This document shows, one piece after another, positions 9,487-10,869 of a stretch of DNA of 64,000 nucleotides. The translations under genes and the position numbers were made by a program. The stretch lies in the NCBI RefSeq assembly GCF_000027125.1, contig NC_017626.1, one strand, 5' to 3'. This DNA comes from Escherichia coli 042 (lineage in GTDB: Bacteria > Pseudomonadota > Gammaproteobacteria > Enterobacterales > Enterobacteriaceae). Under the pieces are notes generated by a model. The model worked only from the letters and a program-made list of their open reading frames with translations, was not told where the DNA came from and made no database searches. Within the stretch, counting starts at the first letter, position 1. Each line of letters opens with the position of its first letter.

Positions 9487-10190
9487 AGAGTAAAACTCAT
9501 TAGGATTACCAGAATTCGGCCAATGCATTGCAAAAATGACATACAAAGAGAGATGTGTGCAGGCACTTAGCCGCGAGGGGCATGGCGAAGCCATACAGAA
9601 AGCACCAGCATTCAGAACTCCTGTGAAAGCGGCATAGTGGCCGCCTGTGCAGGAGTTTTGCTATGACCCGTATCGTGCTGAACGTTGCCACCCTATGATG
9701 CGATTAAAAAAACTCACCGTCGAGCCGATGATTGACGTCAATGCTATCGGATGATGCCGGGGGTGTTCCGGAAGGAATTCCTTGTTTCCCGAACTGTTAT
9801 CCACAAAATTATAACGATGAGCAAGTAAAGACCGGTTGGTGGCAGTACTGACCGGTCTGTGATGGAAGATTAATTTCACCTTAAATCCTGGTGCTGTTAG
9901 GATGCTGACGTTTTTCGGGTACACCATTCAGATTATGCAAATGAAGACCCAATCAAAAAATAAATATCCCTGAATATAATATATTTATAGCACCCATATC
10001 TCATCCTGGGCGATAACCAAACCATTTTTGATTAACAAATGAAACAACTGCAACAACTGCAACGTTCTTATTATTTCTGGAAAACATCTCGCAAAAACAA
10101 AACAGCATGCAAAAATCCGCTTTTTTTAAATGATTTTTCGGCGTAATTTTCGCACATACATTAATGAGTAATATATGTAAGGTATTGGTA

Positions 10191-10409
10191 ATGGCGATGA
10201 ATACGGTTTTTCTTCATTTATCAGAAGAGGCAATTAAACGGCTGAACAAGCTTAGGGGTTGGCGTAAGGTTTCACGATCTGCAATTTTACGCGAAGCGGT
10301 AGAGCAATATCTGGAACGTCAGCAATTCCCGGTGCGTAAAGCAAAGGGAGGCAGGCAAAAGGGGGAGGTAGTTGGTGTTGATGATCAGTGTAAGGAGCAT
10401 AAGGAATGA
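10191..10409 (+). CDS. yiiE: Ribbon-helix-helix (CopG/MetJ-like) family small regulator
   Basis: 72-aa product MAMNTVFLHLSEEAIKRL...; start chosen to match the expected N-terminus, alternative upstream starts exist. Confidence 0.7.
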   Translation: MAMNTVFLHLSEEAIKRLNKLRGWRKVSRSAILREAVEQYLERQQFPVRKAKGGRQKGEVVGVDDQCKEHKE

Positions 10410-10644
10410 CAAAAATTTTTCATTCTTGAATATAAAAAAACAGATGCCCTTATTCTGGTATTAATACAAGGCTGTTTTACTTGAACTTATAATAACTGCA
10501 ACTGTTACATCATATCTGGAAAACGCCTCGCAAAAATAAAAAATGATGCGTAAATGCGCTTTCTTTAAGCATTCGACAAGGGTACTTTTCTCGCCATAGA
10601 TTCAAAATGATATTGGCGAGATATATATGAACTCTCTGGCAGGT

Positions 10645-10869
10645 ATGGATATGGGCAGAATTTTACTCGATTTATCGAATGAGGTGATTAAGCAACTTGA
10701 TGATCTTGAGGTGCAGTGTAATCTTCCTCGTGCGGAGCTATTACGGGAAGCGGTAGATCAATACCTGGTAAATCAATCGCAAACAGCAAGAACCAGTGCT
10801 TTTGGCATCTGGCAAGGATGTGAGGAAGATGGTGTCGAATATCAGCGTAAGCTGCGCGAGGAATGGTAA
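10645..10869 (+). CDS. yiiF: Ribbon-helix-helix family small protein, paralog of YiiE
   Basis: Product [18 protein letters not shown]... shares the LREAV.QYL core with YiiE; start uncertain (ORF track 10627). Confidence 0.7.

Follow-up and report, generated by a model that had tools for sequence, protein, structure and literature searches.

yiiE and yiiF of Escherichia coli 042: the antitoxin unit of an old chromosomal vapBC operon, duplicated in tandem

The genes yiiE and yiiF of Escherichia coli 042 lie side by side in the 64,000-nucleotide stretch of chromosome analysed here (contig NC_017626.1; hereafter the window) and encode two small ribbon-helix-helix (RHH) proteins. We show that the pair is a tandem duplicate of the antitoxin half, i.e., control region plus vapB, of an old chromosomal vapBC toxin–antitoxin operon. 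By its sequence features YiiF qualifies as an orphan VapB antitoxin whose live partner is gone from the window, and YiiE appears better described as a VapB-derived RHH regulator. Taken as a whole, the locus is probably best explained by a duplicated vapBC antitoxin unit with a dead toxin gene, an ancestral upstream block inherited by both copies, roles split between YiiE and YiiF, and copies that recombine with each other. It is a decayed, still partly conserved vapBC relic and not a new kind of system. An earlier note on this DNA had recognized a pair of tandem paralogues sharing an RHH core and a duplicated promoter-plus-gene unit, and was right on both; it had missed that this unit is the antitoxin half of vapBC, with a vapC pseudogene directly downstream.

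Regarding YiiF, it is the protein of PDB entry 2K5J (E = 2e-40) and aligns over its full length, tail included, with chain A of PDB 7BY2/7BY3 (7BY2_A, E = 5e-28), the VapBC complex of Klebsiella pneumoniae, in which an RHH VapB is paired with a PIN-domain VapC ribonuclease and which is the closest solved relative of the system. The partner chain B is named 'Ribonuclease VapC' in 7BY2, and the intact VapC found in other E. coli matches it with E = 9e-63. The alignments with 2K5J and 7BY2_A give YiiF an N-terminal RHH domain and, behind it, a toxin-binding tail homologous to that of the VapB solved together with VapC; this tail, with the pattern GxWQxCEEDGxEYQRxLRxEW when aligned with 7BY2 chain A, is invariant in eight Escherichia alleles. 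Taken alone, the window YiiF scores below the Pfam cut-offs (16.8 bits for RHH_3 and 14.5 bits for RHH_1), and its close homologues carry PF01402.

The genomic context of the relatives points in the same direction. At the same site by fdhE, Citrobacter and Pseudocitrobacter carry two genes that overlap stop to start, the first encoding an 80-aa RHH protein and the second a 124-aa PIN protein. Scanning one genome per species, we obtained 32 loci outside Escherichia, in genera including Citrobacter, Salmonella (diarizonae), Klebsiella, Kluyvera, Enterobacter, Phytobacter, Kosakonia, Superficieibacter, Buttiauxella and Cedecea; the RHH gene is followed by a PIN-like open reading frame (ORF) in 30 of these 32 loci, and 29 of them adjoin fdhE. 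This conserved RHH–PIN pair beside fdhE across genera therefore represents an old, vertically inherited chromosomal vapBC, of which yiiF is the vapB. The K. pneumoniae system has the same operon layout, with a stop and a start overlapping by one base (TAATG), and most of the sampled relatives also lie by fdhE, whereas in the window the toxin gene is destroyed, the -10 and Shine–Dalgarno sequences are damaged, and an extra, diverged antitoxin copy with its own control region lies upstream. Indeed, no intact PIN toxin gene follows yiiF in the same operon in the window, and since vapC is a pseudogene in the window, in K-12 and in E. fergusonii, yiiF is to be regarded as an orphan antitoxin. To our knowledge, the toxin–antitoxin census literature generally treats E. 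coli K-12 as being without vapBC; in the searchable literature we found no publication pairing yiiF with the word 'antitoxin', and none on PDB 7BY2/7BY3.

The duplication itself is written in the DNA. Two 51-nt blocks, one before each gene, are identical at 41 of 51 positions without any gap, at an offset of 439 bp, and a repeat search extends them to a 78-nt direct repeat of 77% identity (10052-10129 against 10491-10568). The 3′ ends of the genes are also repeated (55 nt, 71% identity, offset 457), and a third collinear repeat is formed by a 14-mer at 9966 and 10422. Running from 9966/10422 through the gene 3′ ends, these collinear direct repeats delimit a duplicated unit of ~456 bp that comprises a whole control region and a whole gene. 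The second unit aligns with vapB and its upstream region in Citrobacter (76% nucleotide identity over 272 nt) and in Pseudocitrobacter (75% over 265 nt). At the protein level, YiiE and YiiF are 39% identical over 56 aa (E = 3e-11), with LREAV(E/D)QYL in both. Local alignment of the non-coding regions (9960-10190 against 10410-10626) reached a score of 70, compared with 20.4±2.8 and a maximum of 32 for 1000 dinucleotide-preserving shuffles of these upstream regions (z = 17.8, 0/1000), and the best ungapped 51-mer match had 41 identities, against a shuffle mean of 23.7 and a peak of 32. As the synonymous sites of yiiE and yiiF are saturated (proportion of synonymous differences, pS, 0.62-0.72; synonymous divergence, dS, >1.3), the 77-80% identity of the non-coding blocks lies far above neutral retention. 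The shared upstream block, and the copying together of control region and gene, which the earlier note had read from the sequence by inspection, thus stand well beyond chance.

Directly downstream of yiiF, vapC is a wreck. A translated search recovers its residues 10-20 at 11044-11076, residues 19-30 in another frame at 11070-11105, and, at 11107-11163, residues 102-125 with the stop codon. Codons ~31-101 have been deleted, and there are in addition a frameshift and a repetitive extragenic palindromic (REP) element, which sits between these fragments and the end of yiiF. The same internal deletion is present in K-12, SCU-115, divergent Escherichia lineages and E. fergusonii, i.e., in all toxin-less alleles sampled, which indicates one old inactivation event, shared or spread. 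One E. coli allele with a chimeric antitoxin gene (L045, see below) has this deletion and no REP, and the REP insertion is therefore the later event. The vapC remnant has diverged by up to 10.7% between the lineages that are compared for constraint below, and by 10.1% between the window and K-12. Full-length vapC occurs in 57 of 5426 complete E. coli (~1%); strains 2016C-3878 and WW2, for instance, are annotated with yiiE, a CopG-family regulator (80 aa), a VapC-family toxin (124 aa) and fdhE. From this intact yiiE-vapB-vapC allele it follows that the duplication is older than the death of the toxin. As a separate observation, protein P0239 joins a VapB in frame with the C-terminal ~23 residues of VapC; here the toxin was deleted independently, in another lineage of VapB.

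To follow the shared block outside Escherichia, we aligned both window copies with the 260-bp regions preceding vapB in 35 loci and read the presence of the block from these alignments. Its core, TCTGGAAAG-N3-CTCGCAAAA(G), is conserved upstream of vapB across genera and is therefore an ancestral cis-element, whose distance to the vapB gene downstream hardly changes across Enterobacteriaceae and which both copies have inherited and kept. The core stays with vapB whichever gene lies upstream, be it a hydrolase gene, fabY or toxin–antitoxin pairs. A second conserved element, TGATATACTGGAGGTATATATG, comprises an extended -10-like TGnTATACT, a Shine–Dalgarno GGAGG and the start codon; within it lies the inverted repeat ATATAC/GTATAT, and it is nearly invariant in 26 vapBC loci. 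The core is found ~85-100 bp upstream of the -10-like element, and the ~60 bp between the core and TGATATACTGGAGGTATATATG vary freely in sequence and hardly in length, with almost no insertions or deletions. In E. coli, TGATATACTGGAGGTATATATG is intact only in the live-toxin allele; the toxin-less yiiF alleles sampled (7/7) share TGATATTGG(C/T)…, with a 2-bp loss and a weaker -10 and Shine–Dalgarno. Within Escherichia, the ~150 bp before each gene are about as conserved as synonymous sites, so that footprinting within the genus does not single out the block and the cross-genus alignment is the informative one. As an interpretation only, the core may be read as two direct half-sites, CTGGAAAG and CTCGCAAA, lying 11 bp apart, a spacing that would suit two RHH dimers on one helix face.

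YiiE has had a different fate. It passes the Pfam model RHH_1 (PF01402; E = 1.1e-11, 44.6 bits against a cut-off of 20.5), its top PDB matches are 7BY2_A (1.3e-7) and 2K5J (1.7e-6), and the window protein is identical to that of K-12. Its homologues are confined to Escherichia/Shigella (115 proteins in a search of 5.8 billion), and an exhaustive HMMER search of 1.84 billion representatives returned 21 matches, the nearest non-YiiE proteins being VapB proteins with 43-52% identity. YiiE was hence made in place from vapB and not imported; the swapping of a foreign RHH domain into YiiE was considered and rejected, as this exhaustive search shows no family closer than VapB. Measured against Citrobacter VapB, the RHH domain has a nonsynonymous divergence (dN) of 0.27 and 57% aa identity in yiiE, 0.03 and 95% in the vapB of the intact E. 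coli allele, and 0.09 and 83% in the toxin-less yiiF of the window; the rise from 0.03 to 0.09 suggests that the RHH domain of yiiF is relaxed in toxin-less alleles. The DNA-facing residues of the β-strand, which we take from the general RHH/Arc repressor pattern rather than from a computation, would be R, L and D in VapB/YiiF (GRILLDL) and T, F and H in YiiE (NTVFLHL). The β-strand of VapB is invariant across the other-genus loci, and its buried positions stay hydrophobic in YiiE. Regarding the tail, the 3′ repeat described above preserves homology to the tail of YiiF at the DNA level, the YiiE protein reads GGRQKGEVVGVDDQCKEHKE there, and both tryptophans are gone; YiiE has thus a VapB-related RHH domain and no conserved toxin-binding tail.

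Present constraint was examined in eight Escherichia alleles with pairwise dS up to 0.5. Codons 3-44 of yiiE, which encode the RHH domain, show no amino acid change (proportion of nonsynonymous differences, pN, of 0; summed synonymous differences, Sd, 83 and nonsynonymous differences, Nd, 0), and the yiiE tail has a pN/pS of 0.41. In yiiF, it is the tail (codons 52-72) that is without amino acid change (pN = 0; summed Sd 80, Nd 0), the RHH domain having a pN/pS of 0.30 and the linker one of 2.0. Changes of YiiE are likewise concentrated in the tail among wider database variants. The pattern suggests complementary constraint, the DNA-binding part being held in YiiE and the toxin-binding part in YiiF, even where the toxin is gone.

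The two copies also recombine. In E. albertii (L044) and in some E. coli (L045, L046), the locus contains a single gene of which the first 35 residues are those of YiiE and the rest those of YiiF, and these chimeras switch parent exactly in the LREAV-QYL stretch. In E. albertii, the tail of the chimera resembles that of the E. fergusonii-type YiiF, the upstream region is of the yiiE type, and the vapC behind it is intact; in E. coli, the tail of the chimera resembles that of the window YiiF, and the vapC behind it is the deleted form. The differing tails and vapC states of the chimeras point to independent collapses of the tandem repeat by unequal crossing-over. Moreover, the metagenomic protein P0202 is the reciprocal chimera, with the RHH domain of YiiF and the tail of YiiE, as expected from a copy-adding unequal crossing-over. 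The near-identical coding stretch for LREAV-QYL thus lets the copies recombine, either into the YiiE-N/YiiF-C collapse or into its reciprocal form.

From these observations, a history and a division of labour can be proposed. After the duplication, YiiE would have changed fast, including at the three predicted DNA-facing residues, lost its toxin-binding tail and then frozen; it may now be a dedicated DNA-binding repressor of its own yiiE-type promoter, and YiiF/VapB would have kept the toxin-neutralising tail. Type II antitoxins with RHH domains normally autoregulate. Autoregulation by YiiE and YiiF is plausible: each RHH protein would most likely repress the transcription of its own unit, and perhaps that of the other, by binding the conserved block, the inverted repeat that covers the -10 and Shine–Dalgarno sequences, or both. 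Because the E. albertii chimera is joined to an intact vapC, a YiiE-type RHH domain can presumably serve a live toxin–antitoxin module from a yiiE-type promoter, and this case is the best indirect support available for autoregulation by YiiE. In a more far-reaching and less likely reading, which we hold only tentatively, Escherichia would have made a three-part module out of the two-gene vapBC by copying the antitoxin along with its promoter, and the antitoxin roles would then have been completely split, YiiE keeping a re-tuned DNA binding and losing that of the toxin, and YiiF/VapB staying in charge of toxin binding with a relaxed DNA-binding domain. The pair would have outlived vapC in most lineages, with YiiE as a stand-alone repressor and with the YiiF tail under selection because it protects, in the manner of an anti-addiction module, against the live vapC that still circulates by recombination. 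All that is said here about the regulation of the locus is what we infer from comparison.

The locus descends from, and would work like, a type II toxin–antitoxin system of the RHH–PIN vapBC kind, and several known systems help to place it. In FitAB of Neisseria gonorrhoeae, the RHH protein FitA is paired with the PIN toxin FitB and binds its own promoter through the RHH β-sheet at an 8-bp inverted repeat; the pairing is the same here and promoter binding by FitA is the mechanism assumed above, whereas the block before yiiE and yiiF is not palindromic and the only inverted repeat conserved in the vapB family is ATATAC-N5-GTATAT, over the -10 and Shine–Dalgarno sequences. Three-component systems with a separate regulator include omega-epsilon-zeta, with the RHH repressor omega, and, in E. 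coli O157, paaR2-paaA2-parE2. The intact allele resembles them in associating a tail-less RHH protein (YiiE) with an antitoxin and a toxin, in the order yiiE-vapB-vapC present in 2016C-3878 and WW2 (in the window the toxin is dead), and selection is split in the same sense. It is nevertheless not a three-component system by definition, because VapB/YiiF keeps an RHH domain of its own; YiiE, moreover, has its own promoter copy instead of standing at the head of a single operon, and as a candidate regulator it arose by duplication of the antitoxin itself. Finally, orphan chromosomal antitoxins can act as anti-addiction modules, as does the chromosomal ccd of Erwinia chrysanthemi against the ccd of the F plasmid. 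Here too, an antitoxin is kept without a toxin in cis, its toxin-binding part is under purifying selection and the adjacent pseudogene drifts, and a live toxin allele circulates; unlike in these modules, plasmid-borne vapC of this type was not seen in appreciable numbers (2 of 1761 vapC matches were on plasmids), and the expression signals of yiiF look damaged.

The kind of system is thus known, and the variant, which combines duplication of antitoxin and promoter, complementary constraint, toxin loss and recurrent collapse, is as far as the searchable literature shows not described. No new mechanism is demonstrated at the locus; what is gained is the origin of two y-genes and a set of clear experiments. 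Indeed, both genes are to this day catalogued without a known function, and the placement of yiiE and yiiF as VapB copies gives both K-12 y-genes an origin and a testable function. A duplicated VapB next to the wreck of vapC also explains the unusually high diversity of the locus, which offers a natural series of four states, namely the intact three-gene form, the toxin-less two-gene form, the collapsed chimera with a live toxin and the collapsed chimera without toxin. This series will be useful to learn how antitoxin duplication, toxin loss and unequal crossing-over reshape a toxin–antitoxin module.

Other accounts of the locus have to be weighed. That two unrelated RHH regulators came to lie side by side and that their upstream regions resemble each other by accident would be helped by the AT-rich composition (GC 0.37-0.43), which inflates random matches, but the shuffles preserved dinucleotides, the two units match collinearly along their ~456 bp, gene ends included, and natural chimeras exist; the repeat extent and the shuffle test refute this account, for which we see practically no chance. 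Since recombination between the copies is demonstrable from the chimeras, gene conversion alone might keep the upstream regions similar, the block being functionless and the locus simply decaying, and the damaged -10 and Shine–Dalgarno of yiiF, its relaxed RHH domain in toxin-less alleles and the many truncated YiiE variants would all suit such a picture. Conversion should, however, have homogenised the adjacent RHH coding region too, which is the most diverged part, and pN = 0 in the RHH domain of yiiE and in the tail of yiiF speaks against free decay. As the block core is conserved in genera with a single copy, conversion as the sole cause is decidedly improbable. A further proposal, made in the earlier note, is that YiiE and/or YiiF autoregulate through a repeated caactgcaa-type motif preceding each block. 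The motif is indeed where it had been described, AACTGCAA being located at 10046, 10055 and 10494, twice before yiiE and once before yiiF, and every Escherichia sampled has a AACTGCAAC-like sequence before each of the two genes. Its same relative position before both genes, the island of low diversity that it forms in the yiiE upstream region within Escherichia, and its confinement to Escherichia, like that of YiiE, could be those of an operator. Nevertheless, none of the 32 non-Escherichia loci has the motif upstream of vapB, though the VapB β-strand is invariant there, and the motif, being part of the duplicated unit, would be found in both copies whether or not it had a function. Regarding the 9-bp doubling, it was not seen in K-12 or in 10 other Escherichia loci, which have a single copy, and among the matches listed of 260 matching complete E. 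coli, 8/8 span 62 nt in two pieces, against the 71-nt query, with none 100% identical; the doubling is private to this strain. Autoregulation by way of the repeated motif, in the form first put forward, is thus not upheld, the element shared across genera being TCTGGAAAG-N3-CTCGCAAAA. Since both the motif and YiiE are restricted to Escherichia, it may still be a YiiE-specific site, and we consider an operator function of the motif unlikely.

Several points weigh against the explanation preferred here, with the block as an RHH operator and two copies with split roles. The block is not palindromic; its core is identical before genes whose predicted RHH reading residues differ, and is kept in E. 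albertii, of which the sampled locus (L044) encodes a YiiE-type RHH domain only, a pattern that fits a host-factor or RNA polymerase element at least as well. As to a promoter, simple sigma-70 scans give one weak candidate before yiiF (TCGACA-18-TAGATT, 10573-10602) and none in intact loci. The selection tests comprise eight sequences with six segregating sites per domain, and the alleles evidently recombine; many truncated YiiE variants are present in databases, which suggests that yiiE is dispensable in some strains; and our survey of the searchable literature found no DNA-binding, transcription-start or toxicity data for the locus. Instead of an operator for YiiE and YiiF, the block might then be bound by a host factor, for instance an activator or an anti-silencer (SlyA would be one), or be contacted by RNA polymerase at the vapB promoter, as an UP-like A-tract would be; the paralogues would share it only because both promoters need it. 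This alternative runs against the usual autoregulation of RHH type II antitoxins, and comparison of the block by eye with consensus sites (SlyA, LacI family, sigma-32, sigma-E, extracytoplasmic function (ECF) type and ModE) gave nothing convincing, a result that we do not count as evidence. It is favoured by the nearly fixed distance of the core from the -10-like element across genera and by reports that yiiE lies in H-NS-bound DNA and is up 2.5-fold on SlyA overexpression (PMC5797941), and that it is a SlyA target in systematic evolution of ligands by exponential enrichment (SELEX) (PMC6134199). We grant it a real, if minority, chance of being correct. The other relevant literature found on the two genes consists of a weak RpoS SELEX peak in the yiiD-yiiE spacer and a survey note on YiiF expression. 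A sigma-54 (-24/-12) promoter was also considered, as TGG and GC are canonically spaced in CTGGAAAACGCCTCGCA, the 3-nt spacer varies between fixed flanks, and glnAp2 likewise has TCGC at -12 (Table 1 of PMC4591121). Scored with a weight matrix built from 50 sites identified by chromatin immunoprecipitation sequencing (ChIP-seq) (PMC4591121), however, the weakest real site has 7.9 bits and the blocks have 6.8 and 3.7, 92-325 17-mers in the window score equally well or better, and yiiE and yiiF are without a reported sigma-54 peak in ChIP-seq or SELEX; this possibility is rejected as very improbable. As a positive control, the same matrix gives 17.9 bits to CTGGCGCGAATTCTGCA inside fdoI (12608, minus strand), an intragenic site for sigma-54 known as IS47 from Bonocora et al. 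2015. The coordinates of the features that make up the duplicated antitoxin unit and its toxin remnant are collected in Table 1.

Table 1. Features of the yiiE-yiiF locus, in window coordinates (SD, Shine–Dalgarno; CDS, coding sequence; BIME, bacterial interspersed mosaic element).
Feature	Position	Strand	Basis or remark
Duplicated unit 1: control region + yiiE, ~456 bp	9966..10421	+	Direct repeats at offsets of 439-457 bp; local alignment from the motif to the RHH core
Duplicated unit 2: control region + yiiF (= vapB), the copy still attached to vapC	10422..10880	+	Orthologous to the vapB region of relatives
Doubled motif, AACAACTGCAAC twice before yiiE	10043..10063	+	9-bp tandem duplication (ACAACTGCA)
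Shared block before yiiE, core CTGGAAAACATCTCGCAAAAA at 10077-10097	10077..10127	+	Repeat and cross-genus alignments
-10/SD/start region of yiiE, homologous, further diverged	10169..10193	+	Ancestral start aligns with ATG-TAA at 10175-10180; yiiE starts at 10191
yiiE CDS	10191..10409	+	72 aa, RHH protein with degenerate C-terminal tail
Shared coding stretch TTACGCGAAGCGGTAGAGCAATATCTGG (LREAVEQYL), crossover zone	10287..10314 (partner 10741-10768)	+	Most similar coding segment
Single motif copy AATAACTGCAAC before yiiF	10491..10502	+	Kept within Escherichia, not in other genera
Shared block before yiiF, core CTGGAAAACGCCTCGCAAAAA at 10516-10536	10516..10566	+	Repeat and cross-genus alignments
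Degraded -10/SD/start element before yiiF (TGATATTGGCGAGATATATATG)	10608..10629	+	Damaged form of TGATATACTGGAGGTATATATG
yiiF (= vapB) CDS	10627..10869	+	80-aa form; K-12 annotation starts at the ATG equivalent to 10651
vapC pseudogene	10869..11163	+	First codon overlaps the stop of yiiF (TAATG); tblastn with VapC of Citrobacter and Pseudocitrobacter; alignment to intact E. coli and E. albertii vapC
REP/BIME element in the 5′ part of vapC	10900..11053	.	Rfam ES036, 45.8 bits (gathering 37.6), and sub-threshold naRNA4 matches; flanked by repeated TGATAYCAAT

Two other explanations of the block at the RNA or protein level were also discarded. A structured RNA leader or known RNA family is rejected: RNAalifold gave 0 consensus pairs on the 26 loci, and Rfam at E<=1 returned just REP-derived matches downstream of yiiF and none in the shared block. 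A 35-aa ORF (10039-10146) spans the motif and the block before yiiE, and the 9-bp duplication preserves its frame; a conserved upstream ORF is rejected, since before yiiF the corresponding sequence is flanked by stops and offers no start, and in E. fergusonii and E. albertii the ATG is missing. Core-like sequences also occur inside the genes: at 10765-10783, over the QYLxNQS codons of yiiF, there is CTGGTAAATCAATCGCAAA, a third and weaker copy of the core (74% to the reference) that is not conserved in Citrobacter, and ATATCTGGAA is present both in yiiE at 10307-10316 and at the start of the yiiF block. Such intragenic copies could be due to chance, form an intragenic site or be the trace of an older duplication.

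Regarding the neighbourhood, the locus belongs to a part of the Escherichia chromosome that runs from yihX, yihY, dtd and fabY (this last at 6267-7256) to fdhE (11200-12129, minus strand) and fdoI. The fabY-fdhE interval is GC-poor (0.37-0.45 against ~0.52 in the flanks) and contains a 617-aa ORF (7633-9486), yiiE and yiiF. In relatives and in other E. coli, the gene sets seen in this interval include an alpha/beta-hydrolase gene, HigB/HTH-like, ParDE and RelE/HTH pairs, 70-aa and 92-aa ORFs, a 604-617-aa ORF and a transposase. In some divergent Escherichia and in E. fergusonii (L039-L042), a 245-246-aa gene without Pfam match (2518-3255 of L042, minus strand) sits between yiiE and yiiF, which makes the yiiE-yiiF spacer an insertion site itself. 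The earlier note had placed the pair next to a foreign insertion and suspected a hotspot. The variable gene content of the interval agrees with the hotspot, but the supposed insertion is common: at least 80% of 7300-9960 is found in 1061 of 5426 complete E. coli, and K-12 is without window positions 7735-9784 (a ~2-kb deletion) and retains the first ~100 bp of the 617-aa ORF, so that the segment is better seen as an accessory one that has been deleted in K-12.

Several minor features of this interval may be recorded. The 617-aa ORF has a low GC content and a CX5R-like motif, CKSAKDRT; searches of Pfam, NCBIfam and PDB gave no match to it. Decayed remains of two small ORFs (70 aa and 92 aa) are present at 9590-9850, where tblastn finds frame-shifted pieces including a stop; both ORFs are intact in E. 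fergusonii (L042, 1146-1698), and the 70-aa ORF has an intact counterpart in Pseudocitrobacter (L005) as well. For 9900-10900, the top match among 5426 complete E. coli is just 96.6% identical, with identity bands from 80% to 99%, a diversity far above what we would expect for typical E. coli core DNA and pointing to old allelic classes or to exchange between species. Finally, the region that separates vapB from a divergent alpha/beta-hydrolase gene in relatives contains a perfect LexA-box-like palindrome, CTGTATGGATATACAG (at ~3810-3830 in L003, and in most of L007-L032), and at the homologous place before yiiF the window has a decayed palindrome, CTGGTATTAATACAAG (10455-10470).

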